Position numbers and translations under genes: made by a program. From NCBI GenBank assembly GCA_036676495.1, contig JAKFCT010000013.1, positions 1-18,492 of the forward strand: a DNA stretch of 18,492 bases. The letters are read 5' to 3'. Under the pieces are notes generated by a model. That model saw nothing but the letters and a program-made list of their open reading frames with translations. It did no database searches and was not told where the DNA came from. Positions 1 to 18,274 of the stretch are shown here, in pieces (the stretch's first letter is position 1; the number at the start of each line of letters is the position of its first letter). This DNA is from Candidatus Sericytochromatia bacterium (lineage in GTDB: Bacteria > Cyanobacteriota > Sericytochromatia > S15B-MN24 > UBA4093).

Positions 1-82
1 CCTGGCTTCCGTCCTCTCGGCCGTCTCCAGGAACCTGGTGTACGCGCTCGACGCGGTTCGCCGTCAAAAGGAAGGCGCCTAG
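1..82 (+). CDS. rplJ: 50S ribosomal protein L10, C-terminal fragment (5'-truncated by window)
   Basis: Frame from nt 2 reads LASVLSAVSRNLVYALDAVRRQKEGA-stop (TAG 80-82), matching the C-terminal L12-binding helix of L10. It lies directly upstream of rplL. Not in the ORF track. Confidence 0.9.
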   Translation, partial: LASVLSAVSRNLVYALDAVRRQKEGA

Positions 83-150
83 CGCCACGTCCCGGCCTCC
101 GGCCTTGGGATTTGTCTGCAACATCATTTGACCGGCCCCGCCGGTTTTTA

Positions 151-158
151 AAAGGAGA
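151..158 (+). promoter_or_regulatory. Shine-Dalgarno site of rplL
   Basis: AAAGGAGA lies 8 nt before the ATG at 167 and is preceded by a U/A-rich stretch. Confidence 0.85.
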
Positions 159-166
159 TTGAATCA

Positions 167-553
<387 letters not shown>

Positions 554-611
554 GATCGGCGGCGCGTCCGGCGCGTCGATTCCTCGACTTCCCGGATGCA
601 CTGAAGCGTGG

Positions 612-644
612 GAGGCCCGGCCATTGGCCGGGCCTCTTGCCTTT
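612..644 (+). terminator. Intrinsic terminator of the rplJL transcript
   Basis: Perfect 11-bp stem GAGGCCCGGCC (612-622)/GGCCGGGCCTC (626-636) with loop ATT, followed by TTGCCTTT (interrupted U tract). Confidence 0.75.
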
Positions 645-671
645 ACAGCCTGTCCCGGCCCCCCGTATAAT
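642..671 (+). promoter_or_regulatory. Sigma70-type promoter for the TPR-barrel-tonB operon
   Basis: TTTACA (642-647), an 18-nt spacer and a consensus TATAAT (666-671) in a high-GC background, about 45 nt upstream of the TPR start. Confidence 0.65.
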
Positions 672-713
672 GAGGCTGCCTGTATTGGCGCCCCCCCGAA
701 CCGCAAAACGAGG

Positions 714-3700
714 ATGGGCCCGTTGTTTACCACCCCTGAGAAACTTCCGAAATTCCTATCCTTGTCCTTGGCGCTTTCCTTCGCCCTCTGGACCGTCCCC
801 GCCACGCCCGTCCTCGCCGCGGAGCTGTCCTGGCGGCGCATCGAGCAGCTCATCGACGCCCGCGCCTACTCGGTCGCGCGCCTGGAGCTCGCCACCCATC
901 TTTCCTCCCTGAAGGGGGACGACCTCCAAGCCGCCCGCTACTGGCTCGGCTTCGTCGAACGCCGTCTCGGCAACCCCGATGGCGCCGAAGCCGCCCTGGC
1001 CAAGGTCTATCCGCGCAGCCTCTATTACCCCAAGGCCCGCCTCGAATTGTCGCGCCTCCTGATCGCCGAGAACCGTATCCCCGAAGGCCTCGACGTCCTC
1101 AAGCGCCTCATCCCCGAACTCACCGGCGAGCAGCGCGACGACGTCCGCCAGACCTACGCCGACCTGCTTTTCGCCCAGGGCAAGATCTTCGAATCCATCG
1201 ACCCGTACCGCGAGCTGGCCGACCGGGGCCTCACGCCCAAGCGCCGCGAGCATGCCGCGTATGCGCTCGGCTGGGCCTACGACAAGCTGGAGAACCCCGC
1301 TCGGGCCATCTGGAGCTGGAAGGAGGCCCTGCGCCTCTACCCAGGAAGCGCGCATGCCACGGCAGCCCGAACGGCGCTCGCCAACCAGTACGTCAAGCTC
1401 GGCAAGCCCCTGCTGGCTTCCGACGTCCTCCGGGGCTTCCCCAAGGAGATCTTCACGGGCGACCTGAAGGCGCGGGCCGAGTACCTGGCCGGCGAGGGCT
1501 ACGCCCAAGGGGGGAACTGGAAGATGGCGATCGTCGCCTACTCCCAGGTTCCCGCCGGCACCAAGTTCAGCGACGAAGCCGCCTACGGCCTGGCTTACGC
1601 TCGCTGGCAAGCCGGAGACGCGACTCGCGCCTCCAAGGACCTCGAGGCCTGGCTCGCATCGAACCCCAAGAGCCCGACGCGTCCCGCGGCCCTCTATGCG
1701 CTCGGTCGGATTCGCGAGGAAGCCGGCAAACTCGACGAGGCCGCCAAGTGGTACGCCCAGGCTGCCGTCCTTCCGGCTGCCGCGCCCGCCGCAGAGGCCC
1801 GAAACCCCTGGGCCGAAGCCGCAATCTACCAGGGTGCCCGTCTGAGCTTCAATCGTGGCCAGCATGCCGAGGCGCTGCGCCTGGCGAAGGCCCTCACCGA
1901 GAAGTACCCGGGCGGCCGCTTCGAGGGGCCCGCGCGCTGGATTGCCGCGGAGTGCCTGCTGGCGCTCAAGCAGTTCGACGCCGCCATCTCGGCCTATGCG
2001 TCGCTTGCCAAGGAAGTCGCCGATCTCGGTTTCCTCGACGCGAAGGGGGACTCGGTCACCTTCCGGCTCGGCCTGGCCCATGTGCGCGCCGGGGACTACA
2101 CCGCCGCCGTCGGCTACCTCGCGCAGGTCGCGGGCAGCCCCCGATACGGGGAGGAAGCCACCTTCTGGATGGCGGAAGCCCTCTACCGCTCGGGCAGCAT
2201 AGAGGAGGCGCGCGACACCTACGAGGCCTTCCTCCAGCGTTACCCCAAATCGGCGCGGGCTGGTTCGGCGGCCTACGGGGCGGCCTGGTGCGCGTACCGA
2301 CAGGAGAAATGGGACGTGGCCCGCGCGGGCTTCAAGCGTGCCGCCTCGCTGCTCGTGAACTCCAGCACCGAGGTCGTGACCCTCAAGCAGGACGCGCTTT
2401 ATCGTCTGGGTGTGCTCTCCGCCAATGCCCATGACTGGTCTGGGGCGCAGAGCGCCTTCAGCCAGCTCCTGAAGCTGAGTCCGGATGCCGAGCAAGCCGC
2501 CGAGGCCCGGTTCCAGGTCACGTACGCTGCTTACCGCATCGGACGCCTGGAAGAGGCCGTCATCGGGCTCGAGGATTTTCTGGCCCAGCACCCCAAGCAC
2601 GCGCGATCGGCCTCAGCACGCTCGACGCTGGGTCAAGCGCTCTTCCGGCTCGGCAAGTTCGAGGCGGCGGTCAGCGCCTTCCAGGGAGTCCTGAGCGATC
2701 CCAACGCCACCCCGGAAGCCCTTCTGGACGCCCGCTCGCGGATCGGCGCTGCCAGCTTCAACGGGGGGGACCTCGACCAGGCCATCGCCACCTACCGGGC
2801 CCTCTTGAAGGATGCCTCGGGATCGGCCGAGGTTCGGGCGCAGATCCTGCAGCCCCTGGCGCAGGCCGAACTCGCTCGCGGCAACCTGTCGGAGGCCCGC
2901 CAGATCGCCTCGGAAGAGGCCTCCGGCTCCCTCTGGAGCGGAGATATCCTGGGCAAGGTCGGCCAGGCCTTCCTCGACAAGGGGCAGCCCAAGGATGCCT
3001 TGCTGGCGCTGGAGGCGATCCCCACGCCCACCCTCGAACAGCGTTACCTGCTTTACAAGGCGCGCAAGGCCGGCGGGGACCTCAATGGGGCCCTGGCGCT
3101 CCTCAAGACGATCGCTGCGGAGCCCGGTCCCCAGCAGCCCTCGTGGCTTTACGAGCTGGGAGAAGCGCAGGCCGATCGCGGCAACTTGGACGAAGCCAAG
3201 GCGGCGTGGGATGACCTGGCCAAGCGTCATCCCGGTCATGCGTTGGCCTCTAAGGCCCAGGTGAACCTGGCCCAGGCCTATCTGAAGGCGGGTCAGGAGA
3301 AGACGGCGCTGACGACCTACGAGCTGATCGCCAAGCGTTTCGCCGCGGATACCCCCCTGGCGCGAGCCGCCTGGATGCGGATCGGGCAGCTTCGCCTCAA
3401 GCACGGGCAGCACTCCGAGGCCGCTCATGCCTACCGTCAGGCCGAGCGACTCAGCGAGAAGGGCTCGGGACCGGCGGTGCAGGCGCGCTACTGGCTGGGG
3501 TATACCATGGTGGCCTCCAAGCGTTACGAGGATGCCGTCAAGGAGCTGCAGTCGCTCAGCGTTTCTCCCGAAGCGGGGCTGGAGTGGCAAGCGCTCGCCT
3601 GGCTCAAGCAGGGTGAAGCCCTCGAGCAGTTGCGCCGGTGGAAGGAGGCCGAGAAGGTGTACGAAAAGCTCATCGCCGCCGCGGGGCTTCCCGCCACCGA

Positions 3701-3764
3701 GAAGCGGGAGGCCAAGGCGCGCCTGGACTGGATTGCCAAGAACGTCAACGGGAGGCGGCCATGA
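714..3764 (+). CDS. Large exported tetratricopeptide-repeat protein (~1015 aa; CpoB/BamD-like TPR units)
   Basis: Start is ATG 714 or TTG 723 (GAGG SD at 710-713); the ORF-track start at 450 overlaps rplL and is rejected. Sec-type signal peptide KLPKFLSLSLALSFALWTVPATPVLA-AE. The remainder is helical repeats (ARYWLG, AAYALGWAY, ALYALG, ATFWMAEALY, ALYRLG) with YPxS-type loops (LRLYPGS, EKYPGG, QRYPKS, QHPKH, RHPGH). Confidence 0.9.
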   Translation: MGPLFTTPEKLPKFLSLSLALSFALWTVPATPVLAAELSWRRIEQLIDARAYSVARLELATHLSSLKGDDLQAARYWLGFVERRLGNPDGAEAALAKVYPRSLYYPKARLELSRLLIAENRIPEGLDVLKRLIPELTGEQRDDVRQTYADLLFAQGKIFESIDPYRELADRGLTPKRREHAAYALGWAYDKLENPARAIWSWKEALRLYPGSAHATAARTALANQYVKLGKPLLASDVLRGFPKEIFTGDLKARAEYLAGEGYAQGGNWKMAIVAYSQVPAGTKFSDEAAYGLAYARWQAGDATRASKDLEAWLASNPKSPTRPAALYALGRIREEAGKLDEAAKWYAQAAVLPAAAPAAEARNPWAEAAIYQGARLSFNRGQHAEALRLAKALTEKYPGGRFEGPARWIAAECLLALKQFDAAISAYASLAKEVADLGFLDAKGDSVTFRLGLAHVRAGDYTAAVGYLAQVAGSPRYGEEATFWMAEALYRSGSIEEARDTYEAFLQRYPKSARAGSAAYGAAWCAYRQEKWDVARAGFKRAASLLVNSSTEVVTLKQDALYRLGVLSANAHDWSGAQSAFSQLLKLSPDAEQAAEARFQVTYAAYRIGRLEEAVIGLEDFLAQHPKHARSASARSTLGQALFRLGKFEAAVSAFQGVLSDPNATPEALLDARSRIGAASFNGGDLDQAIATYRALLKDASGSAEVRAQILQPLAQAELARGNLSEARQIASEEASGSLWSGDILGKVGQAFLDKGQPKDALLALEAIPTPTLEQRYLLYKARKAGGDLNGALALLKTIAAEPGPQQPSWLYELGEAQADRGNLDEAKAAWDDLAKRHPGHALASKAQVNLAQAYLKAGQEKTALTTYELIAKRFAADTPLARAAWMRIGQLRLKHGQHSEAAHAYRQAERLSEKGSGPAVQARYWLGYTMVASKRYEDAVKELQSLSVSPEAGLEWQALAWLKQGEALEQLRRWKEAEKVYEKLIAAAGLPATEKREAKARLDWIAKNVNGRRP

Positions 3765-5407
3765 GGATCGCGCATCGCCTGAGCGCGGCGCTCGGCCTTT
3801 CCCTGTCGCTTCTGGTCGTACCCGGACTTCCGGCGTGGGCGCAAGGCGCGGCCGAGGCGGACAAACCGATTTCTCCGAAAGCGCCCGCCAAGACGCAGGC
3901 CGAGCCGCGCGCTGCCGAAAAGTCGGTGGACAAGCTTCCGGTGGACCTGCCTTCGGTCATCATCCGGGGCGAGGACGAGACGGCGGCTCCCCTGAAGGGC
4001 GGAGTCAAGGTGACCCCGCTCGACCCCAAGGCTCCCCTCTCCGAGTTGCCGGCGGCGCCCAGCGCCAAGGCTCCCGGCGCGCTCGAGCTGGCGATCGAGA
4101 ACCTCTTGCCCAACCTGACTCCCCCGCCGGAGAGCATGCCTTTGCCGCGGAAGGACTGGACCGAGCTTCAGCTCGGCCTGGGCGGCCTCTACGAACTGGG
4201 CCTCTTCCATGGCCGCGAGATCGCGGGAGCCGTGACCGAGAGCCAGCTCGCCATCGATTCGGCCATGCCCTGGATGCGCGCGCGCCTCGGGATCGACGCG
4301 ACCTGGAACCTCGCCACGGCGGGCCTGGGCGTCCGCCACTACCAGGAAGACCGCGCGCCCGGCGAGCGCCTCATGATCCAAAGCATGGACCTGGGGGGCA
4401 ACTGGCAACGTGATGACTTGTTGACCGAGGGCTCGCTCGAGTTCGGTCGGGTCGTCGTGCCAGCCACCACCGGGAACGGCCGCGCGCCGGACGGGGATAC
4501 CTGGACCCGCGCCGTCGTGGCCGGAGCGCTCTGGAAGCCCCAGATTCACCCGGATCACGTCTCGGAGCTCTCGGCTTCGCTCGGCCATCGCGAGACGGAG
4601 CGCCGCTCGGATCCGACGGTATACCTCCGGGCCTTCGATCACTGGACTCTGAACCCCAAGTGGAGCGTGGAGGCCGGCCTGGGGGGAGGTCTCTTCGTGG
4701 GGATGCCCGTCCTGGACCCCTTGGCGCGTTTGAGCTATCGTCCCGACGACCCGACGGAGATCAGCGTCGGCCTCACCAGCGGCAGTGAGATGCCGGGATT
4801 CGAGAGCCTCTACCTCTCGCGCCGGTTGTCGGAGGGCAATGGCGGCCTCTTGCCGCAGCGCTCGACGATCATCGCGAGCCTCAGCGGGTCCCATCGCCTC
4901 AACGACCTCTGGTACGCCACGGCCGAGCTGGGTTACCAGCAGATCGATCGGTTCATCTTCTGGGAGGATGGCAACCAGGACGGCCTCTGGAGACCCGTGA
5001 ACACGGCCCTGGGCGCGGCCCAGGACGTCTGGAACGCGCAGTTCTCGGCCCGCTACCAGATCGGCATGACGGGTTCGCAGCGCTTCCATTACCGGATCCG
5101 GTCGGCGCAGCCGCTGGGCCTGGTGGTGCAGGAAGCCGGAGCGGTCCACCAGCGGACGCTGATCCCGGATCGGCTGACCATGGAGGCGGGGGCGGCGATC
5201 GCCCTCGACCAGCTCGGCGCCGCCCAGGCCGTTTCCGCGAGCTCGGGCTGGCAGATCCTCGCCAACGCCGGGTTGAACTACCGCCTCAACGAGCGCATCG
5301 GCCTCTACGCCAAGCTTCAGGACCTGCCGCTCGCGGTGCGTCCGCCGAGCCCCAATTACTACGCCCCCTTCGGCCTCGCGCTCATCGGGGCGACGGTGGA
5401 GTTCTAG
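3761..5407 (+). CDS. Outer-membrane beta-barrel protein, TonB-dependent-receptor-like (548 aa), apparently lacking a plug domain
   Basis: ATG 3761 overlaps the TPR stop (ATGA) and has a GGAGG SD. Signal peptide ends AWA-Q. TonB-box-like DLPSVIIRG, about 22 amphipathic strands by eye, TBDR-like motifs MPGFESLY...GNGGLLPQRS and LNYRLNERIGLYAKLQDL, and C-terminal Phe (GATVEF). Confidence 0.75.
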   Translation: MRIAHRLSAALGLSLSLLVVPGLPAWAQGAAEADKPISPKAPAKTQAEPRAAEKSVDKLPVDLPSVIIRGEDETAAPLKGGVKVTPLDPKAPLSELPAAPSAKAPGALELAIENLLPNLTPPPESMPLPRKDWTELQLGLGGLYELGLFHGREIAGAVTESQLAIDSAMPWMRARLGIDATWNLATAGLGVRHYQEDRAPGERLMIQSMDLGGNWQRDDLLTEGSLEFGRVVVPATTGNGRAPDGDTWTRAVVAGALWKPQIHPDHVSELSASLGHRETERRSDPTVYLRAFDHWTLNPKWSVEAGLGGGLFVGMPVLDPLARLSYRPDDPTEISVGLTSGSEMPGFESLYLSRRLSEGNGGLLPQRSTIIASLSGSHRLNDLWYATAELGYQQIDRFIFWEDGNQDGLWRPVNTALGAAQDVWNAQFSARYQIGMTGSQRFHYRIRSAQPLGLVVQEAGAVHQRTLIPDRLTMEAGAAIALDQLGAAQAVSASSGWQILANAGLNYRLNERIGLYAKLQDLPLAVRPPSPNYYAPFGLALIGATVEF

Positions 5408-6166
5408 ATGTCCGAACGCCCGATTAGCCTGACGGCCTCCGTGGCCCTTCACGCCCTCCTCTTGCTCGTGGGCATCTTCACCTGGCAGACGACGGTCGAG
5501 GAGCCCATCAGCGAGCCCGTGGAACTGGTCGACCTGCCCTGGACGGCGCCCGGTGCCGGCGAGAGCGATCGCCCCGCCCCCGGCAAGCCGCGTCCCCAGA
5601 GTCAGGCCGTCCCCAAGCCGGAGGCCCCGGCGCCGCGCGAGCGCATCGACACTCCGACGAAGGCGGCCGTCACGCAGGCCCCCAAGGTCAAGACTCCGGC
5701 CAAGACGGAGCCCAAGCCCGACCTCGACGCCCTCCTCGAGGAGCGCCTCAAGGATCGTCAGGAAAAGGAAGCCAAGCGCCTCGGCGAGCTGGCGTCGAGC
5801 GACCTCAGCTCGGTGGTCGGCACCGGCAAGGCCCCGGAATCCGGTGGCCCCTTGCAGGAAGGCTCGGTCAACTCCGGGAGCGGCATGCGCGGAGAGCTGG
5901 GCAAGCGCGGCATCCTCACGAAGGTCCATCCCGAGTACCCGTCCTTCGCCAAGCGCCAGGGAATCGAGGCCGACGTCACCCTCCGGGTCTGGGTCAGCCC
6001 CCGCGGCGGCGTGAGCCGGGTGGAGGTGGTCAAGCTCTCGGGGACCCCGGAGCTGGATCGCCGGGCCATGGAGGCGCTCAAGCAGTGGAAGTTCGCGCCC
6101 CTGCCGGATGAGATCGAGCCCGTCACCCAGTGGGGGGAGATCACCCTTCACTACCGCCTGGATTAG
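5408..6166 (+). CDS. tonB: Energy transducer TonB family protein
   Basis: N-terminal TM helix with S-x3-H (TASVALHALLLL), Pro/Lys-rich spacer, and TonB C-terminal domain PEYPSFAKRQGIEADVTLRVWV...SGTPELDRRAMEALKQWKFAP. The ATG directly follows the upstream TAG. Confidence 0.92.
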   Translation: MSERPISLTASVALHALLLLVGIFTWQTTVEEPISEPVELVDLPWTAPGAGESDRPAPGKPRPQSQAVPKPEAPAPRERIDTPTKAAVTQAPKVKTPAKTEPKPDLDALLEERLKDRQEKEAKRLGELASSDLSSVVGTGKAPESGGPLQEGSVNSGSGMRGELGKRGILTKVHPEYPSFAKRQGIEADVTLRVWVSPRGGVSRVEVVKLSGTPELDRRAMEALKQWKFAPLPDEIEPVTQWGEITLHYRLD

Positions 6167-6226
6167 CGCGGGCCGACGGTTCGGCTCCTGAAGAATCGGA
6201 TTGCCCTTTAGGGTATAAGGCCTTTG

Positions 6227-8194
6227 ATGAAAGACACCGTTCAGCACCTCCTCTATACGTCCAGCGCCAACCTCAACCTCGATATCCTGCGCTCGCTCGA
6301 GGAGCGGGGTATCACCTGGCGGGTCATCGACCACCTGGGCGAAATCAGCGAGGATGCGAGCTATGGCCCGAAGATCCTCCTGCTCGATCGACACTTGATC
6401 CAGCAGCATACTCCCAATGACCTTCATCGCCTCCAGGAGGACTGGGGGCCGGACGGGGTCTTCGTCTGCTCCTACCCCGAGGGTGAGGATCCGCCGCATG
6501 TCCCGGACGACCTGCTCTGGGGCTTTCTGCGCGAGCCCTATCACGGTCAGGCGTTCACCAAGTTCGTCAACAACGCCTTCCTCTTCATCCTCGGTCAGAT
6601 GGAGAACGAACGCTCGCGGGCCGAGATCAAGGACTATGCCATCAAGCTCCAGGAGCTCAACCGGATCGGTATCGCCCTCTCCTCGGAGCGCGAGCCGGAG
6701 CGCCTGCTGGAGCTGATCCTCTCCAAGAGCCGGGAGATCACCAACTCCGATGCCGGCAGCCTCTTCCTGGTCGAGACCACGCCAGACCAGGATAAGCGCC
6801 TGCGCTTCAAGCTGACCCAGAACGACTCGGTCCCCTTCGAGTTCACGGAGATCACGCTGCCCATCCGGACGTCGAGCCTGGTGGGCTACGTGGCCCTCAC
6901 GGGCCAGGCGCTGAACCTTCCGGACGTCTACGAGATTCCCCGGGATGCGGAATACGGTTTCGACCAATCTTTCGACCGGAGGACCGGCTACCGGACTCGC
7001 TCGGTGCTCACCATCCCGATGAAGAACCGCAACGACGAGACCATCGCCGTGCTGCAGCTCATCAACCGCAAGCGCCGCCGAGATCTGCGTTTGACGGATG
7101 CGCGGCTCGCCACGAGCGGAGTCGTTCCGTTCGACGCGATGTCGGAAGAGCTGGCCAGCTCCCTGGCGAGCCAGGCGGCCGTCTCGATCGAGAACAACAT
7201 CCTCTACCAGAGCATCGAGGGCCTCTTCGAGGGCTTCGTGAACGCGTCGGTCACCGCGATCGAGTCGCGCGATCCGACCACCTCGGGCCACTCCGCCCGG
7301 GTCGCCAGCCTGGCGGTGGCGCTCGCGGAGGAGGTCGACCGCCTCGACGCGGGCCCGTTCCGGGAGCTGCGCTTCAGCCGCGAGCAGATCCGGGAGCTGC
7401 GCTACGCATGCCTGCTGCACGACCTCGGGAAGGTCGGCGTGCGCGAGCAGGTCCTGGTGAAGGCCAAGAAGCTCTACCCCCATGCGCAGGAGCTGATCAA
7501 GGCCCGCTTCGACTTCGTCAAGAAGGCGCTGGAAGCCGAGTTCACGGGCAAGAAATTGAGCTTCCTGCTGGAGCATGGGCGGGAGCGTTACCTCGAGTCT
7601 CTGGGGATCTTCGATGCGGACCTGCGCGCCGAGCTGGAGGCCATCGACGACGCCTGGACCACCATCCTGTCCGCGAACGAGCCGACGGTCCTCGAGGAGG
7701 GAAGCTTCCTGCAACTGCTCGAGATCGCGCAGCGCAGCTACCGGGATATCGACGGGCATACCTGCAACCTGTTGACGCCGTCGGAGGTGAAGCAGCTCTC
7801 GGTGCGCCGTGGCAGCCTGGACGAGGACGAGCGGCTGGAGATCGAGAGCCACGTCACGCATACCTTCCGGTTCCTCGCCCAGATTCCCTGGACCCGGGAT
7901 CTGGCGAAGGTGCCCGAGATTGCCTACATGCATCACGAGAAGCTGAACGGGAAGGGGTATCCCAACCGTTTGCCTGGGCCGGCGATTCCGGTCCAGTCGA
8001 AGATGATGGCGATCGCCGACATCTACGATGCCCTCACGGCGAGCGATCGCCCCTACAAGAAAGCCGTCCCACTCGCCAAGGCCCTGGATATCCTGCGCTT
8101 CGAAGCTCGCGACCAGCACATCGACCATGAGCTGCTCACGATCTTCATCGAGCACCGGATCTTCGAGCGGGGCCGCGTCCTGAATCCGTCCTGA
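6227..8194 (+). CDS. GAF- and HD-GYP-domain cyclic-dinucleotide phosphodiesterase with a degenerate receiver-like N-terminus
   Basis: Start is ATG 6227 or TTG 6224. GAF region DAGSLFL...FDRRTGYRTRSVLTIPMKN...VLQLINRK. HD-GYP motifs ESRDPTTSGHSARV, LLHDLGKVGV, HHEKLNGKGYP and IADIYDALTASDRPYKK. Confidence 0.92.
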   Translation: MKDTVQHLLYTSSANLNLDILRSLEERGITWRVIDHLGEISEDASYGPKILLLDRHLIQQHTPNDLHRLQEDWGPDGVFVCSYPEGEDPPHVPDDLLWGFLREPYHGQAFTKFVNNAFLFILGQMENERSRAEIKDYAIKLQELNRIGIALSSEREPERLLELILSKSREITNSDAGSLFLVETTPDQDKRLRFKLTQNDSVPFEFTEITLPIRTSSLVGYVALTGQALNLPDVYEIPRDAEYGFDQSFDRRTGYRTRSVLTIPMKNRNDETIAVLQLINRKRRRDLRLTDARLATSGVVPFDAMSEELASSLASQAAVSIENNILYQSIEGLFEGFVNASVTAIESRDPTTSGHSARVASLAVALAEEVDRLDAGPFRELRFSREQIRELRYACLLHDLGKVGVREQVLVKAKKLYPHAQELIKARFDFVKKALEAEFTGKKLSFLLEHGRERYLESLGIFDADLRAELEAIDDAWTTILSANEPTVLEEGSFLQLLEIAQRSYRDIDGHTCNLLTPSEVKQLSVRRGSLDEDERLEIESHVTHTFRFLAQIPWTRDLAKVPEIAYMHHEKLNGKGYPNRLPGPAIPVQSKMMAIADIYDALTASDRPYKKAVPLAKALDILRFEARDQHIDHELLTIFIEHRIFERGRVLNPS

Positions 8195-8195
8195 C

Positions 8196-8750
8196 ATGGC
8201 TGCTGCGACCGACGCCGCCATCTACCGGGCCTGCGAGGCCATCGGGGCCATGATGGAAGTCTGGGGCTTCAAGCGGGTCATGGGCATGGTCTGGGCTTAC
8301 CTCTACCTCAGCGATCGGCCCATGTCGGCGCAGGAGATCCGCGAAGGCCTCGGCATCAGCGCGGGCCTGGTCTCGATGGTCATCAACGACCTGGAGCGCT
8401 GGGGGGTGGTCCACAAGTGCACCACCCCCGGGGAGCGGCGGGAGTACTACGAGGCCGAGGCCGATATCTGGAGCCCCATCGCCAAGGTCCTGCGCGAGCG
8501 CGAGATGCAGCAGATGCAGGAGACGCTCGACCAGATGCGCGCCGCGCGCGACGTCGTGAACCGGGAAGTCCCCTCCCGGCGCCTCGATGAGCTCATCGCC
8601 GCCGGAGAGCTCACCCACCAGCTGCTCGACCAGTTCATCAACCTGGGAGTCCTCGACGTGCGCGACATCCGCTCCGTCGGGCTGGGTGTCGGCCTCACCC
8701 GGACCATGTTCCAGCTCAAGCAGCTGGGATCGCGCTCCGATTCCCGCTAG
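8196..8750 (+). CDS. GbsR/MarR-family winged-helix transcriptional regulator
   Basis: WGFKRVMGMVWAYLYLSDRPMSAQEIREGLGISAGLVSMVINDLERWGVV followed by wing GERREYYEAEADIW, typical of GbsR/OpcR-type proteins. Starts 1 nt after the HD-GYP stop. Confidence 0.88.
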   Translation: MAAATDAAIYRACEAIGAMMEVWGFKRVMGMVWAYLYLSDRPMSAQEIREGLGISAGLVSMVINDLERWGVVHKCTTPGERREYYEAEADIWSPIAKVLREREMQQMQETLDQMRAARDVVNREVPSRRLDELIAAGELTHQLLDQFINLGVLDVRDIRSVGLGVGLTRTMFQLKQLGSRSDSR

Positions 8751-9238
8751 CGGATCTGCCCCTTCACCGGAGGCGCGATCTCGGGGCGTTGACCCGTGAC
8801 CGCCCCGCGCGCCACGTCGAACATGACCCGCAGCCGACCGCCCTTCGGCTCCCAGTACTCCGCCTCGCGCGCCGTCACCTTGATCATGCAGAGATCCGAC
8901 TGCTCCGGCCCTTCCGGGAACCAGACGCGCCAGCTCTCCTTCCAGTGCTGCTTTAGGAAGTCCTTGTCCTGGACCACCTCGACGTCGCCGGTCAGCGAGA
9001 CGTAGGCGTTGTCCCGATCCCGGAAGTAGATCACTCCCGCCTTGGGGTTCGCCCGCATCTCCTCCACCTTGTCCGAGTGCAGCGCGCTCACGAACCAGAG
9101 ATCCGCATCCGGCTCGCGCTCCTGCGTCATCATCGGGCGGGCATGCAAGTAGCCGTCCCGCGTGACCGTGGTCAGCATCGCCACCGAGAATTCCTTGAGG
9201 TGCTCATGCAGCTCATCGAGCGAAAGCGTCTTGGTCAT
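8747..9238 (-). CDS. Pyridoxamine 5'-phosphate oxidase-like FMN-binding protein (general stress protein 26/YdaG type)
   Basis: Motifs VAMLTT...LHARPM, LWF...SDKVEEMRANPK, YVSLTG, WFPEGP and AEYW. Strong GGAGGGAGG SD upstream on the minus strand. Confidence 0.88.
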   Translation of the reverse strand: MTKTLSLDELHEHLKEFSVAMLTTVTRDGYLHARPMMTQEREPDADLWFVSALHSDKVEEMRANPKAGVIYFRDRDNAYVSLTGDVEVVQDKDFLKQHWKESWRVWFPEGPEQSDLCMIKVTAREAEYWEPKGGRLRVMFDVARGAVTGQRPEIAPPVKGQIR

Positions 9239-9330: not shown

Positions 9331-10065
9331 CTAGCCCGGCATCGAGACGAAGGCGAAGCCCGTGTTGAGCTTGAAGACGCCCGCTCCCACGTAGCTGAGT
9401 CCCGGGGTCTTGGCCGCGTTCTTCGGCCCTTCCACGTTCAGCTGCTTGACGATCTCCTCGCGGGTCTTCTTGCGGATATCCCCGCCGAAAAGCCGCGCCA
9501 GCGGATCGAAGCCCGAAACCTCGCCCTTCACGCTCTCATCGGGCTGGTCGATCCAGACCATCCCCTCGCGATCCAGGTAGACCGCGAAGTCGAAGCTCAC
9601 CGCGATGTTATGCCCCTGGTAGTCCACGATGCCGCTGCAGCGCAAGGTCTTGCCAATGCGCGTCACGGTGATGCCCTTGGGCATGTTCGGCTTGAGGTTC
9701 TTTTCCAGCTCCGCGACCACCGTGTCCAGGACCTGCATGCGCAGCTTCGCACGCTCGATCTCGGTGGCGGGATCGTTGCTGCCCATGCCGTAGGTCGAAA
9801 GGTAATGGTTGATGATGTTGGCCGCTTCGCGCGGGTAGGTGCGCTTCACCCAGCTCACGAAGGGGTTCTTCATGATGTCGTTGGACGCCCCTGCCGGCTC
9901 TTCCACCCGGTTGTAGACCGGAGTGGGCGGAGCTTTCTTGGGCTGGGTCGCCGTCGGGGCCGAGCCGCAACCCAAGAGCCCGAAGGCCAGGACGGCCAGC
10001 AAACCGAGCCGGACCATGGCGGAAGACCTCCCGGCAAGGGGCTTTTCTGCAGCCTCGTTACGCAT
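9331..10065 (-). CDS. Hypothetical lipoprotein
   Basis: Hydrophobic stretch with lipobox LAFGLLG-C, followed by a Pro/Thr-rich tether and a globular domain I do not recognise. GGAGA SD upstream; an alternative start at MVRLG is possible. Confidence 0.75.
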   Translation of the reverse strand: MRNEAAEKPLAGRSSAMVRLGLLAVLAFGLLGCGSAPTATQPKKAPPTPVYNRVEEPAGASNDIMKNPFVSWVKRTYPREAANIINHYLSTYGMGSNDPATEIERAKLRMQVLDTVVAELEKNLKPNMPKGITVTRIGKTLRCSGIVDYQGHNIAVSFDFAVYLDREGMVWIDQPDESVKGEVSGFDPLARLFGGDIRKKTREEIVKQLNVEGPKNAAKTPGLSYVGAGVFKLNTGFAFVSMPG

Positions 10066-10188: not shown

Positions 10189-10719
10189 ATGTCCGCATCG
10201 CCCGTCGGTGGAAATCTCCGCCGGAACCTCGAACTCAAAGCCCGTTGTCCCGACCCTTCCCGCGTCCAAGCCGCCCTTCAGCGGCTCGGAGCCCAGGATT
10301 CAGGGCTCTTGATCCAGACGGACACTTACTTTCATGCGCCTCACGGCCGCCTCAAGCTGCGGGAAATCGAGGGTTGTCCGTCCCAGCTCATTGCCTACGA
10401 CCGCCCGGAGGAAGCAGCCCAGCGCATGAGCGCCTTCCGGATCACCGAGGTCACGGATGCCGACGGGCTAAAGGCCGTCCTCACGGACGCCCTGGGGCTT
10501 CGTGGCGTCGTCTCCAAGCGCCGTCGGCTCTACCTCTGGCAGGACTGCCGGATTCACCTGGACGAGGTCGAGGGTCTCGGCACCTTCCTGGAGTTCGAAG
10601 TGTTCTCCGAGGGCGACTCCTGCAGCGACTGGGATCGCATGGAGGCGCTCATGACGACGTTCGGGCTCACGGACGCGGACGCCATCCGGGCCTCCTACTC
10701 CGACCTGATGGGGTTTTGA
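10189..10719 (+). CDS. CYTH-domain protein (class IV adenylate cyclase/triphosphate tunnel metalloenzyme family)
   Basis: ATG 10189 with AAGGAGG SD; the longer ORF-track start at 9610 is rejected. Motifs NLELKAR (ExExK variant), QTDTYF, RLKLRE, KRRRLY, IHLDEVEGLGTFLEFE and SYSDL. Confidence 0.9.
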   Translation: MSASPVGGNLRRNLELKARCPDPSRVQAALQRLGAQDSGLLIQTDTYFHAPHGRLKLREIEGCPSQLIAYDRPEEAAQRMSAFRITEVTDADGLKAVLTDALGLRGVVSKRRRLYLWQDCRIHLDEVEGLGTFLEFEVFSEGDSCSDWDRMEALMTTFGLTDADAIRASYSDLMGF

Positions 10720-10773
10720 TTCGGGGCTGGGGTGAGGCGGTGGGAAAGCGACGTTTCGCTACAGCCGCGGGCG

Positions 10774-11526
10774 CTAGGCCAAGCGGTGAAATGGGGCGCG
10801 CTCGCGGGCCCGGGCGGCTTCCCAGGGAGTGAGCGCGCCGACTTCCAGGGTGATCCCCCAGGTTTCGGCCATGGCCTGGGCGATCGCCGACGCGATCCTG
10901 TCGCGCTCGGGAACCATCCCCAGCACGTCTGCCAGGCAGGTGGCGTCGTCGCCCGTCGACGGCTGGGTGAGCAGGTCCTGGATTTCCGCAGGGCGCTGGG
11001 TGAGCATGACCGCGCCGTGCTGCAGGAAGGCGCCTTCCCGGCGGGTCTGGGCGCTTCCTACCAGCTTTCGCCCCAAGGCCACGAGATCGGCCTGGGTGGC
11101 GCTCTGGAAGCAGGACGCGGAGCCCGCGCGGCTCAACTTTCCCGGGGCGATGGCGGTCGGGGCTCCCAGCCGGGCGATCGCCGTGGCGAGCACCTCGGTG
11201 ATCATGCGGTAGGTTCCCGCGACGCTCGCCGGGAAGCCCTCGGAGGCGATCACGGCGTACGTGAACTCCCCCCGGTGCAGGACCGCCCGTCCGCCGGTCG
11301 AGCGACGGACCACGGCGATGCCGGCCGCCGCGCAGGCGTCCAGGTTCACGTCGGAGAGCGGCTGGGCGTAGCCGAGGGAAAGCGCCGGAGGAGTCCAGGA
11401 GTAAAAGCGTAGCGTCGGGGGCGTGAGGCCCTGGCGATGGGATTCGAGGAGGGTTTCGTCGAGCGCCATGTTCCAGGCGGCGTCTCCCGCCGCATCGGGC
11501 AGGAGTCGCCAGGAACGGGCCGGCAT
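10774..11526 (-). CDS. Lipoate-protein ligase family protein, LipM-like octanoyltransferase (single catalytic domain)
   Basis: Motifs NMALDETLL, TLRFYSWTPPALSLGYAQ, VVRRSTGGRAVLH, CF, KLVGSAQ and LQHGAV. 250 aa with no LplA C-terminal domain. Confidence 0.88.
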   Translation of the reverse strand: MPARSWRLLPDAAGDAAWNMALDETLLESHRQGLTPPTLRFYSWTPPALSLGYAQPLSDVNLDACAAAGIAVVRRSTGGRAVLHRGEFTYAVIASEGFPASVAGTYRMITEVLATAIARLGAPTAIAPGKLSRAGSASCFQSATQADLVALGRKLVGSAQTRREGAFLQHGAVMLTQRPAEIQDLLTQPSTGDDATCLADVLGMVPERDRIASAIAQAMAETWGITLEVGALTPWEAARARERAPFHRLA

Positions 11527-12248
11527 CAGGAAAGGGGCTTGGTTGCCGAGACGAGGGCCATGGCCCCCATGGCGCGGTCGTGAACCTGGACCTCGGTGAA
11601 GCCGACGGCCTGCATGCGCTTGGCCAGCTCGCGCTGGTCGACGAAGCTGAGGTTGGACTCGGGGAGGTACTTGTAGGCATCGCGGTTGCCGCTCACGAGC
11701 CCGCCGATCAGGGGCACCACCCGGAAGGAGTAGACGTCCGCTCCCCAGCGAATGAGGCGGAAGCGGGGCTTGCCGAGATCGAGGGAGACGGCGCGGCCGC
11801 CGGGGCGGAGGACGCGGTGGATCTCGGAGAGGGCGCGGTCGAGGTCGGTGACGTTGCGCAGCCCATAGCCCACGGTCACGGCGTCGAAGGAGGCGTCCGG
11901 GAGGTCCAGGGCGGTCATGTCGCCTTGAATCCAGGTGATGGGGCGGCCTTCCAGGTCGCGATCCCGGGCGATCGCGAGCATGCCCTCCGAGAAGTCGAGA
12001 CCGACGATCTCCCCCTGGGCTCCGACGCGATCGGCCAGCAGGAAGGCGATGTCACCGGTGCCGGTGGCGAGGTCGAGGGCCTTGCCGCCGGGCGCGAGGG
12101 CCGCGAGCGCGACGACCTGACGCTTCCACTGGCGATGCGCGCCGGCGGTCATTAGGTCGTTGACGCGGTCGTAATTGGTGGCGATGGCGTCGAACATCGC
12201 CTGGACGTAGCGGCCCTTCTCGGGGGCTTGAGGCATCTGGAAGCTCAT
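11526..12248 (-). CDS. menG: Demethylmenaquinone methyltransferase (UbiE/MenG)
   Basis: True start is MSFQMPQ at 12248 (ATGA overlap with the upstream stop). Motifs VQAMFDAIATNYDRVNDLMT, SAM motif LDLATGTGD, GYGLRNV, RVLRPGG and AYKYLPES. Confidence 0.95.
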   Translation of the reverse strand: MSFQMPQAPEKGRYVQAMFDAIATNYDRVNDLMTAGAHRQWKRQVVALAALAPGGKALDLATGTGDIAFLLADRVGAQGEIVGLDFSEGMLAIARDRDLEGRPITWIQGDMTALDLPDASFDAVTVGYGLRNVTDLDRALSEIHRVLRPGGRAVSLDLGKPRFRLIRWGADVYSFRVVPLIGGLVSGNRDAYKYLPESNLSFVDQRELAKRMQAVGFTEVQVHDRAMGAMALVSATKPLS

Positions 12249-13225
12249 TTGGTGGCCGGTCCGTGCAGGCGGGCCTGCTCGCTGAGCTGGTCGAGGTAGC
12301 TTTCGAGCTCGTCGCGCGACGGGGCCTTGGGCAGCTCGTGCAGCCACTTGCGGGTGAGGGCGACCTCGGCCTCGACCTGCTCCAGGGTGAGGCGGTAGAC
12401 GTCGGGCTGGAAAAGGAAGTCCTTGAGGTCCTGGCTGAGATCCTGGGGGTACGGGGTCAGGAGGGCGCGGAGGCGCGGGCCCATCTCGGCATGATCCAGG
12501 GCCACCAGGACCGGGAGCGTGAGGTTGCCGGCCATGAGATCCTGACCCACGGGCTTGCCGAGGGTCTCGGCGTTGCTCGACCAGTCGAGCAGGTCGTCGA
12601 TCATCTGGAAGAGGCGTCCCAGGTGGTAGCCGAGCATGCGGGCGGCTTCCGCTTCGCGCTCCGAGCCGCCGCTGAGGATGGCGGCGCCTTCGCAGGCCAG
12701 CTCGAAGGGGCCCGAGGTCTTCTTGGCGACACGCTCCAGGTACTCGGTGATGCTCACGTCGAGGTTGTGCTGCTGCTCGTCCTGAAGGAGCTCGCCCTCG
12801 CAGAGACCGGCGAGCACTTCGCCCATGCGGCGGCAGAGGTGCGGGATGCCCAGGGAGGCCATCAGGATGGAGGCTTGGCTCAGGAGGTAGTCTCCGGCGA
12901 GGACGGCGACCTTTTCGCCCCACTTGGCGTGGACGGCCTCGACGCCGCGACGGACGGCGGCTTCGTCCAGGATGTCGTCATGGACGAGCGAACCCGTGTG
13001 CAGCAGCTCGACGGCGTCTCCCAGCCGGGAGTGCTCGTCTCCGACCGGGCCCGTCGGGTTGACGGCTTCGCCGACCAGGCGGACGCAGGTGGGGCGAATG
13101 CCCTTGCCGGAAGCCTTCAGGAGGTGAATCGAGGACTCGGAGAGCAGCTGATGGCGGGTCGCAATGCGCTCCGTGACGCCGATTCGGAAGGTCTTCGACG
13201 GGGTTTCTTGGGACGGCACGGTCAT
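12245..13225 (-). CDS. Long-chain trans-polyprenyl diphosphate synthase (solanesyl/octaprenyl/heptaprenyl type)
   Basis: GKGIRP, FARM LVHDDILD...RRG with small residues (G,S) at -5/-4, AVLAGDYL, GELLQ, KT, and SARM FQMIDDLLD...LGKPVGQDL..G.LTLP. Confidence 0.95.
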   Translation of the reverse strand: MTVPSQETPSKTFRIGVTERIATRHQLLSESSIHLLKASGKGIRPTCVRLVGEAVNPTGPVGDEHSRLGDAVELLHTGSLVHDDILDEAAVRRGVEAVHAKWGEKVAVLAGDYLLSQASILMASLGIPHLCRRMGEVLAGLCEGELLQDEQQHNLDVSITEYLERVAKKTSGPFELACEGAAILSGGSEREAEAARMLGYHLGRLFQMIDDLLDWSSNAETLGKPVGQDLMAGNLTLPVLVALDHAEMGPRLRALLTPYPQDLSQDLKDFLFQPDVYRLTLEQVEAEVALTRKWLHELPKAPSRDELESYLDQLSEQARLHGPATK

Positions 13226-13270
13226 GCGGGGCCTCGCTGCATGGCTGAAGAGAATGGGCGGTCGGATGCC

Positions 13271-13299
13271 ATCCTAGCACGCGCTACGGCAAGTTTCAA
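13271..13299 (-). promoter_or_regulatory. Sigma70-type promoter for the prenyl synthase-menG-lipM operon
   Basis: On the minus strand: TTGAAA (13299-13294), a 17-nt spacer and TAGGAT (13276-13271). Confidence 0.65.
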
Positions 13300-13311
13300 G
13301 ATTTCTTGAAA
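13294..13311. promoter_or_regulatory. 18-bp palindrome, candidate operator overlapping both divergent -35 boxes
   Basis: TTTCAAGA-TT-TCTTGAAA has perfect 8-bp arms and is an AT-rich island in a GC-rich genome. Confidence 0.7.
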
Positions 13312-13334
13312 GCAAAGGAAACATGCGGTAGAAT
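13306..13334 (+). promoter_or_regulatory. Sigma70-type promoter for menFDHBA
   Basis: TTGAAA (13306-13311), a 17-nt spacer and TAGAAT (13329-13334). Confidence 0.75.
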
Positions 13335-13407
13335 CCAGGGGTGATGCTTGGCCGCATGAGCTGCGGCAATGCGTTTCCGGACCTCCGTGCCCCTTGAAGG
13401 TGACCCC

Positions 13408-14814
13408 ATGCGCACTCAGACGAGCTTGCTTTCTCTCGAGGCCCGAATCGACGTCCTCGATCAGGCCTTGGAGCGGGCTCGCCGCACGGGGCGCCCCGTC
13501 CTGGTCGCCCTGGCCAGCCGTCCGGTGCGCGAGGCGCTTCGCGATCGCCTTCTCGACGCTCCCGCCGCGCCGAAACTGGCCTGGACGGACCTCTCCACCG
13601 GCTCGCGCTTCCTGGGGCTCGCACAAACCGACGTCCTGCGCGCCTTCGAGGCGGATGCCGCCTGGGAGATGCCGGACCATGCCCGGAGGCTTCTCGACGA
13701 AGCCGTCTGCGCCCCCGAGATCCGCCCCGAACTGCGCGTCTTCGGCGGCATCGCCTTCGACCCCGGCACCGCCCCCCACCCCGCTTGGCCCGATGGATCG
13801 CCCGCCCGCTTCGTCCTCCCTCAGGTCCTCGTCCACGAGCACGCGGAGGAGACCCGGATCCTCCTGACCAACTGGGCGCAGCCCGAGGACCATGCCGAGG
13901 ATTTGCTCGGGCGCTTCGAAGACGTGTTGAGGGATGTCGAGGACTGGCTGGAGGCTCCTGCTGCCGCCGTCTTGCCGTTCGCCGTGCCGGACCTTCCCGA
14001 GGGTGCCCGCGAGCGCTGGTTCGCGCAGGTTGAAGCCGCCCTATCGCACATCCGCTCCGGAGCGGTTACCAAGATCGTGCTCTCGCGAGACCTGCCGGTC
14101 CGCTCCGATGGTCCCTTTCCCATGGGGACCGTCATTCGAGGCCTGGAGGCCCTGGCGACCTCCGGGACGGTCTTCGGCTTCCAGTTCGAGCCGCACGCGG
14201 CCTTCGTGGGAGCGACCCCTGAGCTGCTGGTCTCCGTCTCGGGGGCCACGGTCCACAGCGATTGCCTGGCCGGCACCTGCAAGCGGACGGGAGACGCCGA
14301 GGAAGACGATCGCCTGGCCCTGGCCTTGCTCGCCAACGACAAGGAGCGCCGGGAGCATGAGCACGTGATCGCCGCGGTCACCGACGCCTTGGCGCCGCTC
14401 TGCGAAACCTTCGACGTCCCCGAGACGCCGACCCTCATGCGCCTTCCGACCCTCCAGCACCTCCACACTCCGGTGCAGGGCCGCCTGCTCGACGGCGTCG
14501 CGCTCGGCACGATCATCCGGAGGCTGCATCCGACGCCTGCCGTGGGAGGCACCCCGCGCCTGGAGGCCCTCGGACTCATCCGGGACCTCGAAGAGCGCCC
14601 CCGCGGCTGGTACGCCGGGGCCATCGGCTGGATCGGCTCCGAATCGGCCAAGTTCGTGGTGGGCATCCGATCCGCCATCTTGCATCCCGAAGGCGCCGTG
14701 GTCTTCGGGGGGTGTGGCATCGTCCGCGGCTCCGACCCGGCTGCCGAATGGGAGGAAACCCAGCGCAAGGCCGCCACCCTCCTCACCTTGCTCACCCAAG
14801 GAGCGTCCGAATGA
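13408..14814 (+). CDS. menF: Menaquinone-specific isochorismate synthase
   Basis: Preferred start is ATG 13408 with AAGGTG SD (alternative 13369). Chorismate-binding motifs KIVLSR, GATPELL, LAGT, KERREH, LHPTPAVGG, RGWYAG and GCGIVRGSDPAAEWEET. First gene of a men operon. Confidence 0.92.
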   Translation: MRTQTSLLSLEARIDVLDQALERARRTGRPVLVALASRPVREALRDRLLDAPAAPKLAWTDLSTGSRFLGLAQTDVLRAFEADAAWEMPDHARRLLDEAVCAPEIRPELRVFGGIAFDPGTAPHPAWPDGSPARFVLPQVLVHEHAEETRILLTNWAQPEDHAEDLLGRFEDVLRDVEDWLEAPAAAVLPFAVPDLPEGARERWFAQVEAALSHIRSGAVTKIVLSRDLPVRSDGPFPMGTVIRGLEALATSGTVFGFQFEPHAAFVGATPELLVSVSGATVHSDCLAGTCKRTGDAEEDDRLALALLANDKERREHEHVIAAVTDALAPLCETFDVPETPTLMRLPTLQHLHTPVQGRLLDGVALGTIIRRLHPTPAVGGTPRLEALGLIRDLEERPRGWYAGAIGWIGSESAKFVVGIRSAILHPEGAVVFGGCGIVRGSDPAAEWEETQRKAATLLTLLTQGASE

Positions 14815-16562: not shown

Positions 16563-17392
16563 CCGAGACCCTGAGCATCGACGGCCGTCCCTGGCACGTC
16601 CACCTCCAGGGAGAGGCCTCGGATCCCGCCTTGCTGCTGCTTCACGGCTTCACGGGTTCCGGCGCCAACTGGCAGGACTTTGCCGACAAGCTCACGGGCT
16701 GGCGCATCATCGCCCCGGATCTTCCCGGCCACGGGACGTCGGCTCCTCCGGTCGGGACCATGCCCGCCGTGGCCCAGGATCTCGTCGCCTTGCTCGACCG
16801 ATTGGGCGTGGAGCAAGCCGTCGTGATTGGCTACTCGATGGGCGGCCGGCTGGCTTTGCACCTGGCCCTTCATGCTCCCGAGCGGATCCGCGCCCTGGTG
16901 GTCGTGGGAGCGACTCCCGGCCTGAGCGATCCTCAGGCCCGCGAGGCGCGGGTCTCGGCCGATGAGGCCCTGGCCCAGCGGATCGAGGCCTCTTACGCGG
17001 AGTTCGTGAGGGACTGGGAAGCGCTGCCTCTGTTCGCGACCCAGCAGGCGCTGGCCCCGGAGACCAAGGAGCGGATCGGCGCGATTCGCCGCTCGCATGA
17101 TCCTCAGGCCCTGGCTTCGGCCCTGCGCCTCATGGGCACCGGATCCCAGGAGCCCCTGCATGAGCAGCTCAGTCGGCTGACGATGCCGGTTCTCTGGGTG
17201 GCCGGAGAGTACGACGCGAAGTTCCGGGACATCGCCCAGAGCGTCCAGGACCGCTTGCCGAACGCCAAGGTCGCCATCCTTCCCTACGCCGGCCACGCGG
17301 TTCACCTCGAGCGCCCGAGCGCGTTCCGGACGCTCTTCACCGCCTTCGCGGAGAAGCTTTCCCCTGTCCCCCCCCGACGATCCGATCGCTGA
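16556..17392 (+). CDS. menH: SHCHC synthase (alpha/beta hydrolase)
   Basis: Motifs LLHGFTGS, DLPGHG, nucleophile elbow GYSMGGR, GEYDAKF and AGHAVHLERP. Lies between menD and menB. Confidence 0.93.
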   Translation: MLTETLSIDGRPWHVHLQGEASDPALLLLHGFTGSGANWQDFADKLTGWRIIAPDLPGHGTSAPPVGTMPAVAQDLVALLDRLGVEQAVVIGYSMGGRLALHLALHAPERIRALVVVGATPGLSDPQAREARVSADEALAQRIEASYAEFVRDWEALPLFATQQALAPETKERIGAIRRSHDPQALASALRLMGTGSQEPLHEQLSRLTMPVLWVAGEYDAKFRDIAQSVQDRLPNAKVAILPYAGHAVHLERPSAFRTLFTAFAEKLSPVPPRRSDR

Positions 17393-17440
17393 GCGGATTC
17401 GTTCGCGTTGTTGATACCGAAACAAGGAGATACATTCGAC

Positions 17441-18274
<834 letters not shown>

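Follow-up and report, generated by a model that had tools for sequence, protein, structure and literature searches.

The window analysed here is the whole of an 18.5-kb contig (C13, 18,492 nucleotides) of a soil-dwelling Candidatus Sericytochromatia, a non-photosynthetic relative of the cyanobacteria. The genome comprises 4.1 Mb on 106 contigs with a G+C content of about 67% and is 92% complete. Three genes that follow each other on the forward strand encode a large tetratricopeptide repeat (TPR) protein (gene 1), an outer-membrane barrel protein (gene 2) and a TonB protein (gene 3) (Table 1). The original prediction, made from the letters of the DNA, had described them as an envelope module extending from 642 to 6166. 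All three genes are indeed there; 642 is the position at which the promoter begins, and gene 1 most likely starts with the ATG at 714.

Table 1 Features of the window, with positions counted from its first nucleotide
Feature	Position	Strand	Evidence or remark
rplL (ribosomal protein L7/L12)	167-553	+	Pfam Ribosomal_L12 104.8 bits, Ribosomal_L12_N 69.6 bits; upstream neighbour, outside the module
GC-rich hairpin, terminator-like	608-640	+	15-bp stem, no T run; between rplL stop (553) and -35
Sigma-70-like promoter TTTACA-N18-TATAAT	642-671	+	-35 at 642-647, -10 at 666-671; 11/12 consensus bases
Gene 1, exported TPR solenoid, 1016 aa	714-3764	+	Pfam TPR_6, TPR_16, TPR_19 and others
Gene 2, outer-membrane protein, 548 aa	3761-5407	+	Start overlaps gene 1 stop (ATGA); single copy in genome
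Candidate TonB box LPVDLPSVIIRG (gene 2 residues 59-70)	3935-3970	+	Motif conservation; likeness to receptors' boxes
Predicted 22-strand barrel of the TonB-dependent transporter type with short loops (gene 2 residues 130-548)	4148-5404	+	AlphaFold2, VIA, Foldseek
Gene 3, TonB, 252 aa	5408-6166	+	Start abuts gene 2 stop; N-terminal anchor, Pro-rich linker, C-terminal domain
GAF + HD/HD_5 (HD-GYP-like) protein	6224-8194	+	Follows TonB gene
MarR-family regulator	8196-8750	+	After GAF-HD gene
UbiE-type methyltransferase	11526-12923	-	Pfam; menaquinone-type cluster (11526-18274)
Polyprenyl synthetase	12245-13225	-	Pfam; menaquinone-type cluster
Chorismate-binding enzyme	13369-14814	+	Pfam; menaquinone-type cluster
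Thiamine pyrophosphate enzyme, MenD type	14712-16562	+	Pfam; menaquinone-type cluster
Alpha/beta hydrolase	16556-17392	+	Pfam; menaquinone-type cluster
Enoyl-CoA hydratase family, MenB type	17408-18274	+	Pfam; menaquinone-type cluster

Positions 642-6166 form a single transcription unit with coupled translation. The promoter and the coupling had both been claimed before and both were found at the positions given. A scan of positions 1-8800 returned the promoter as the only sigma-70-like site, where shuffled sequences gave a mean of 0.6 with a standard deviation of 0.8. The same-genus locus L050 has kept the hairpin as well as the promoter, there TTTACT-N18-TATAAT in the same arrangement, and another family of the order has a classical terminator and a TATAAT at the equivalent position. 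RNA folding of the intergenic region 554-660 yielded -61.5 kcal/mol (z -4.38), a value matched by none of 200 shuffles; the hairpin itself was not among the calls of the terminator scan. Genes 1 and 2 overlap by ATGA (3761-3764), with GGGAGG at 3750-3755 six bases upstream, and the TAG of gene 2 (5405-5407) directly abuts the ATG of gene 3 (5408-5410). As stated in the original prediction, no exbB or exbD, periplasmic binding protein or ATP-binding cassette (ABC) transporter is present among the 19 open reading frames of the window that were scanned with Pfam. No Fur box was found either (0 matches at up to 3 mismatches), which is a weak test in this phylum since the consensus used was that of E. 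coli.

Gene 2 encodes a protein with a signal peptide and the C terminus ...ATVEF. It had been described as a barrel resembling TonB-dependent receptors that has lost the plug, and this description holds, at the level of relatives and predicted fold. At default thresholds the protein matched nothing in Pfam and NCBIfam, and the sequences of solved structures gave 0 matches at E ≤ 10. A word-indexed search revealed 13 homologues, and an exhaustive profile search through 1.84 billion representatives gave 26 barrel matches at E ≤ 0.001; one of these, P0036, turned out to be a translated tandem repeat and was dropped as an artefact. The barrel profile, when used in the word-indexed search, retrieved the known members and one vitamin B12 transporter at E 6e-4. 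The barrel family of TonB-dependent transporters (TBDTs), PF00593, is matched by 7 of the 14 close relatives (best E 3.7e-8) and by 4 of the 19 further relatives; with E 0.022, the window protein stays below the Pfam threshold. The Plug family (PF07715) is matched by none of the 14 close members at E ≤ 10 and by none of the 19 further relatives at E ≤ 0.01.

An AlphaFold2 model, calculated from 29 sequences, has 22 long strands beginning at residue 132. For residues 130-548 the predicted local distance difference test (pLDDT) score is 89-98 in nearly every block of ten residues, with two blocks (231-250) at 72-75. The top matches of a Foldseek search with this model were all TBDTs, with Cir first at 1.4e-12. 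Alignment with VIA gave Z values of 19-21.6 and root-mean-square deviations of 3.1-3.8 Å over 358-383 residues for BtuB, PirA and Cir. These alignments begin at model residues 126-132, and residues 130-548 correspond to BtuB 134/136-594, FhuA 158-723 and Cir 162-663, that is, to the parts that follow the plug. The surface loops, as read off the list of strands, have 2-24 residues, and the two longest (344-365 and 397-420) hold the most conserved motifs of the family. Taken together, relatives and predicted fold support that gene 2 codes for a 22-strand barrel of the TBDT type, homologous to PF00593, that has no recognisable N-terminal plug. The module would work like a Ton system, yet it departs from the definition of a TBDT at the plug.

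In place of a plug, the model has a stretch (residues 1-130) with pLDDT 35-57 and no secondary structure but one short helix. The mature N terminus (29-130) consists to 19% of proline and to 17% of alanine. Residues 58-73 read KLPVDLPSVIIRGEDE and include the motif LPSVIIRG. LPx[VIL]x[VI]xG was found in 29 of the 30 full-length members of the barrel family and the 30th has PQKVEIKG instead; five shorter entries in which the motif is missing are fragments or truncated gene calls. With a value of 0.53, the block 51-75 is about as conserved as the best blocks of the barrel (0.54). Five receptors encoded in this genome have a plug, and just after the signal peptide they start with LDEVVVTG, LEPVVVRS, PQVEVAT, LPEVFTTG and LAPQVVSG, and LPSVIIRG is a candidate box of the same kind. 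It would be bound by TonB, and about 60 residues separate it from the first strand of the barrel. A complex prediction with residues 45-135 of the barrel protein and 160-252 of TonB, run without controls, ended with a score of 0.00 and a mark of 0.32, which speaks neither for nor against binding.

The product of gene 3 has a TonB_C domain (PF03544, residues 174-251) with 70.8 bits against a cut-off of 24.6, and the model TIGR01352 scored 66.8 bits against 27.1. Against the full-length TolA model it scored 46.3, below the cut-off of 59.45. The linker has 14% proline and the N-terminal anchor carries SVALH at residues 11-15, which has the S-x3-H spacing. In a recent survey, the S-x3-H motif in the anchors of TonB and TolA is assigned to coupling with the ExbBD or TolQR motor (PMC12204202). 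Judged by domain, linker and anchor, gene 3 encodes a true TonB.

With no exbB/exbD in it, the window falls short of a complete Ton locus. Besides gene 3, the genome has two further TonB genes, located in ExbB-TonB-receptor clusters on contigs C28 and C91. Six MotA/ExbB matches were found, all on contigs other than that of the window: three are MotA proteins paired with MotB, two belong to the receptor clusters on C28 and C91, and one is an orphan on C93. There are, accordingly, three ExbB-ExbD motors, on C28, C91 and C93; the ExbD partner was identified by a Pfam match on C93 and by a tblastn match just after ExbB on C28 and C91. As far as gene content tells, a motor for the TonB of the module is available in trans. 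The pair on C93 (L008:1026-2094, minus strand) has no TonB or receptor gene alongside and is a candidate motor; an open reading frame downstream of it (L008:77-868, minus strand) has the appearance of a spurious frame on the antisense strand. The MotA-MotB pairs are at C38:35467-38123, C57:49921-51567 and C27:5601-7369. FliL and an FlhB-type gene adjoin one of these pairs, and the organism appears to be flagellated.

Gene 1 had been predicted to encode an exported protein of about 1000 residues made up entirely of TPRs of the CpoB/BamD type. This is borne out by its signal-peptide-like N terminus, which has no lipobox cysteine, by Pfam matches to TPR families only and by NCBIfam, where the CpoB/YbgF model TIGR02795 scored highest (207.5 bits, 8 stretches), together with the BamD model TIGR03302 (127.9 bits, 5 stretches). 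These scores are to be read as repeat type and imply no family membership. CpoB/YbgF has about 260 aa with a single TPR domain and its gene accompanies tolQRAB-pal; the protein here is not CpoB/YbgF, since it has 1016 residues with 8 repeated stretches and the genome has no TolB or Pal above cut-off. Nor is it BamD, a lipoprotein of about 240 residues that belongs to the Bam complex. The AlphaFold2 model, based on 16 orthologues, has a mean pLDDT of 89.3 and contains 53 helices and not a single strand. In this model the protein forms a solenoid with about 26 TPR pairs. It is most conserved at residues 451-500 and 901-1016, and distant orthologues match best over the C-terminal 150 residues. 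Foldseek with this model retrieved generic long TPR solenoids only (IFT-A, Ski3, Ctr9, OGT), without any functional lead.

The original prediction had proposed to look for a conserved order of the TPR, barrel and tonB genes, and this order is indeed conserved. The search covered Cyanobacteriota, with 27 genomes of the order to which the host belongs (four families) and 374 others of the phylum. In 23 of the 27 genomes the three genes share a contig and a strand and run in the order TPR-barrel-TonB, and in the remaining four (G124, G100, G064, G079) contig ends interrupt the block; no genome of the order has the three genes apart within a contig. The TonB query matched in 27/27 and the TPR query in 26/27 genomes of the order. 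Of the 26 other genomes of the order, 24 had a match to the barrel profile, whereas the 374 other Cyanobacteriota, 19 of the same class included, had none; in G007 only tblastn (E 8e-7) and the exhaustive search detected the barrel. By tblastn, all 15 fetched loci have the TPR and the TonB gene and 14 have the barrel gene, the 15th having a match to the barrel profile. The best TonB match in each genome adjoins the barrel, which supports the view that the TonB of the module is a distinct lineage, as far as sequence tells, inherited together with the barrel. Since the genomes are kin, these numbers stand for joint inheritance of the three genes, with identities as low as 22-37%, and not for independent events. 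In G046 and G043 the TPR match had been recorded with one TAG inside; in locus L051 this is the regular stop of the gene, which the alignment overruns by one codon at its end, and the gene is not broken.

The block is also present on a distant metagenome contig, L086 (7957 bases, 48% G+C). The marginal match P0038 of the exhaustive search, a protein of 517 aa with the N terminus ...LPEVIISGENE, is encoded there, in the order TPR protein (992 aa, rich in TPR_6), barrel, ExbB, ExbD, TonB and a protein with TPR and SpoIID domains. A word-indexed search with P0038 found the protein itself only and nothing outside the barrel family. Aligned by hhalign, the two TPR proteins match from end to end (47-992 versus 58-989, 882 columns, E 3.4e-45), and the barrels align over 209 columns with a probability of 97.6%. 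The TPR, barrel and TonB proteins of L086 each have the corresponding gene of the window as best match in this genome, which for barrel and TonB is the sole match. Going by these alignments, the block exists beyond Sericytochromatia, there with its own motor. The ExbB inside the L086 block is closer to the C91 copy than to that of the orphan pair on C93, and the latter was not retained as the cognate motor. The last frame of L086 (6618-7955, plus strand) runs off the contig end; its TPR repeats are fused to SpoIID, a domain of cell-wall remodelling. As leads only, language-model look-alikes of both barrels fell into unannotated clusters of 533-596 aa, mostly from Spirochaetota, Rhodothermota and Bacteroidota. 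The original prediction had mentioned similar pairs annotated in Bacteroidota, with which these leads agree.

The neighbourhood of the module is less constant than the module itself. Among the 16 loci compared, rplL precedes the module in six (the window, L050, L055, L061, L062 and L063), and in L064 rplA alone, about 2.6 kb upstream, was identified by Pfam; three of the four families are represented among these seven loci with rpl genes upstream. In the original prediction, this position next to a ribosomal operon had been called consistent with a core function. Such a function does not follow from it: rplA, rplJ or rplL precede the module in 7/16 loci, but a terminator-like hairpin and a separate promoter stand in front of the module. 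Nine of the 16 loci (L051-L054 and L056-L060) have a subtilase (Peptidase_S8) no more than three genes away from the module, in at least four arrangements. The genome has 26 subtilase matches in its 4.1 Mb; subtilases also adjoin the TonB-receptor cluster on C91 (C91:75610-76383) and lie near the ExbBD pair on C93 (C93:6633-7403). The adjacency to the module exceeds what is expected from their abundance, but the loci are kin and not independent. Together with the 26 matches and the subtilases beside other Ton clusters, it points to a lifestyle in which proteolysis is prominent, and Ton systems and proteases may be linked.

A GAF-HD gene follows the module in all five loci of the window's family (the window and L050-L053; the gap in L052 is about 10 nt) and may be a fourth, regulatory member of the module there. 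A phosphonate-type ABC system is found downstream of the module in one family only. Farther downstream, the window has a menaquinone-type cluster, the gene names of which are an interpretation of Pfam matches. The open reading frames on the minus strand at 9331-10065, 10667-11680, 13222-13893, 13821-16097 and 16394-18394 are long and had no family match. Each overlaps annotated genes of the opposite strand, and they are most likely spurious antisense frames, which are typical of high-GC DNA.

How does this gene set compare to known systems? It was not described in the literature searched, although most subscription journals were outside the reach of that search. With canonical TBDTs (BtuB, FhuA, Cir, PirA) it shares the 22-strand fold, an N-terminal strand like a TonB box and a standard TonB C-terminal domain. 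In contrast to them, there is no plug, the loops have 2-24 residues and the box resides on a Pro/Ala-rich tether of about 100 residues; moreover, the barrel has a 1000-aa TPR protein as constant neighbour, a private TonB and no uptake genes alongside. Tol-Pal/CpoB is alike in having a TolA/TonB-type transducer and CpoB-type repeats, and a SpoIID-type gene follows the block on L086. The partner of TolA has a short box at its N terminus, to which TolA binds. Here, however, TolB and Pal are missing (neither model gave a match above cut-off in this 92% complete genome), an integral barrel forms the outer-membrane end, and the TPR protein is no lipoprotein and about four times as long as CpoB, so that the likeness is one of repeat type only.

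The Agl-Glt machinery of Myxococcus xanthus has a Tol/Ton-type motor, a periplasmic TPR protein of about 1200 aa (GltD), GltG and GltJ with domains like TonB-C, and the barrels GltA and GltB, whose N termini are long, unstructured and equipped with a potential TonB box (PMC9946355, PMC11761067). The list of parts is thus similar, with a large periplasmic TPR protein, TonB-like domains and barrels with unstructured N termini. Its barrels are described there as porin-like and not of the TBDT type; it has at least 17 genes whereas the module has three, and the genome studied here has flagellar genes (MotAB, FliL, FlhB-type). Membership in Agl-Glt was rejected, with 26.7 bits for the GltE model versus a cut-off of 225 and 12.5 for GltC versus 450.

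Type S transporters of Bacteroidota are, according to a preprint, small, lidless TBDT-like proteins with a small or absent plug that import short fructans, and a plug-deleted SusC still transports (bioRxiv 10.1101/2025.11.13.688124). They are alike in being TBDT-derived barrels without Pfam annotation and with a reduced or absent plug. They have about 770 aa, are found in clusters of carbohydrate enzymes and take up small sugars, and that text describes neither a giant TPR protein nor a private TonB. In Myxococcus, the subtilisin-like protease PopC is secreted only if Oar, a TonB-dependent barrel, is present (PMC6434023). There, too, a TonB-linked barrel is tied to a subtilisin-type protease, as subtilases are close to the module in 9/16 loci; Oar is described as a TBDT, whereas here the plug is missing and the window has no subtilase. 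BcsC, PgaA and AlgK-AlgE have barrels of 16-18 strands with TPRs and are encoded with a synthase; the model here has 22 strands with TBDTs as top matches, and no synthase was seen among the open reading frames of the window, these families not having been searched directly. Another plug-less 22-strand barrel, OEP37 of chloroplast envelopes, is predicted in a preprint.

We tentatively read 642-6166 as a dedicated envelope-spanning force-transduction module of the Ton type that serves a constitutive envelope task and is not a classical importer, and we put the probability of this reading at about 0.4. Judged by analogy, the most likely task would be coupling or stabilising of the outer membrane, as in Tol-Pal/CpoB or in Glt of Myxococcus, with classical high-affinity nutrient import less likely. 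An ExbBD motor with its genes on another contig would drive the TonB, which is anchored in the inner membrane. The barrel would have descended from TBDTs, having lost the plug and nearly all surface loops and having kept the TonB box, now carried at the end of a periplasmic tether that is flexible and rich in Pro and Ala; translational coupling would keep synthesis of the TPR solenoid in step with that of the barrel. TonB would pair with the box strand to strand and then pull. With no plug to unfold, the force would act on the outer membrane and the barrel, or it would displace a gate to which the TPR partner or the tether contributes. We infer binding of TonB to the box, contact between TPR protein and barrel, the role of the force and the physiological function alike. 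A constitutive envelope role is favoured because the partner is a scaffold of the CpoB/BamD type, because the barrel has no ligand-binding surface, because the promoter looks constitutive, because the genome lacks Tol-Pal and because a cell-wall enzyme gene follows the block on L086.

However, several points weigh against such a role. The great majority of barrels of the TBDT type are importers. Within residues 70-130, which are moderately conserved (0.37-0.53 identity), a small fold resembling a plug could escape an alignment as shallow as 29 sequences, and a 22-strand lumen would call for some closure. The CpoB/BamD scores may merely mirror the type of repeat, the SpoIID gene adjoins the block in a single locus, and the ExbB of L086 is most similar to that of C91 and not to the orphan copy on C93. 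The subtilases near the module in nine loci fit a transport linked to proteolysis. That plug-less barrels of Bacteroidota import sugars weakens the argument that the barrel is not an importer. Finally, the 374 other Cyanobacteriota gave no match to the barrel, and Tol-Pal was sought in this genome only, so the module is no general solution to the envelope problem.

Could the module be a nutrient importer after all? It would then be a minimal TonB-dependent or TBDT-derived channel for a small substrate or a peptide, with residues 70-130 as reduced plug and the TPR protein as receiving or chaperoning partner. Both the fold and the candidate TonB box are of the importer kind, lidless and plug-poor barrels of Bacteroidota and the plug-deleted SusC are reported to transport (bioRxiv 10.1101/2025.11.13.688124), and the subtilases near the module, by the C91 cluster and near the C93 pair would fit scavenging of peptides; with 26 subtilase matches in the genome, some adjacency is to be expected, though. 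There is no binding protein or ABC partner in the window and none consistently in relatives, the surface loops of the model seem too short for a high-affinity site, and the constitutive-looking promoter has no match to the Fur box of E. coli. We know of no importer that has a 1000-aa TPR partner and a private TonB. On balance, we regard an importer as somewhat unlikely, though as a serious rival to the envelope reading. A TonB-powered exit gate for proteins, such as the subtilases, or for a polymer, with the TPR protein as periplasmic guide, would make use of the wide lumen that the plug-less model has, and it would account for subtilase neighbours in several arrangements. The combination of TPRs and a barrel is also the logic of the polysaccharide porins BcsC, PgaA and AlgK/AlgE, but these have 16-18 strands, and by Pfam the window has no synthase or glycosyltransferase. 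The precedent of a TonB-dependent barrel needed for PopC secretion (PMC6434023) is Oar, which has a plug; in the window genome no subtilase is next to the module, and no cargo signal was identified. Export is, in our judgement, unlikely but likewise a serious rival.

It is very unlikely indeed that a decaying receptor remnant came to lie by chance beside a TonB and a TPR gene without joint function. Loss of plug and loops could resemble decay, and the window protein is below the Pfam threshold, but the frames are intact, translation is coupled, the N-terminal motif is conserved, and the block has been kept across four families down to 22-37% identity and recurs on the distant contig L086.

In the conventional view, TonB systems are importers that pull plugs, and Tol-Pal is the force system for stability of the outer membrane. 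The module keeps TonB, box and 22-strand barrel, drops the plug and adds a CpoB-like scaffold, which raises the question what the force of TonB does without a plug. It is tempting to speculate, although we consider it unlikely, that the block is an unrecognised, cross-phylum, proton-powered envelope system that replaces Tol-Pal/CpoB in lineages without it: TonB would pull an integral outer-membrane anchor, the CpoB-like solenoid would link it to cell-wall enzymes, and the system would keep the outer membrane attached or constrict it at division. One order of Sericytochromatia would have acquired it, perhaps from Bacteroidota/Rhodothermota or Spirochaetota, to which most of the language-model look-alikes belong. 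Outer-membrane attachment without Tol-Pal is listed as open in a 2025 survey of force transducers (PMC12204202). If the module is indeed a device for envelope stabilisation or export, it would bear on this question in Cyanobacteriota and Bacteroidota. The module also provides structural biology and genetics with a small target of only three genes, and with a family of barrels of about 550 aa that lack annotation in current domain libraries.

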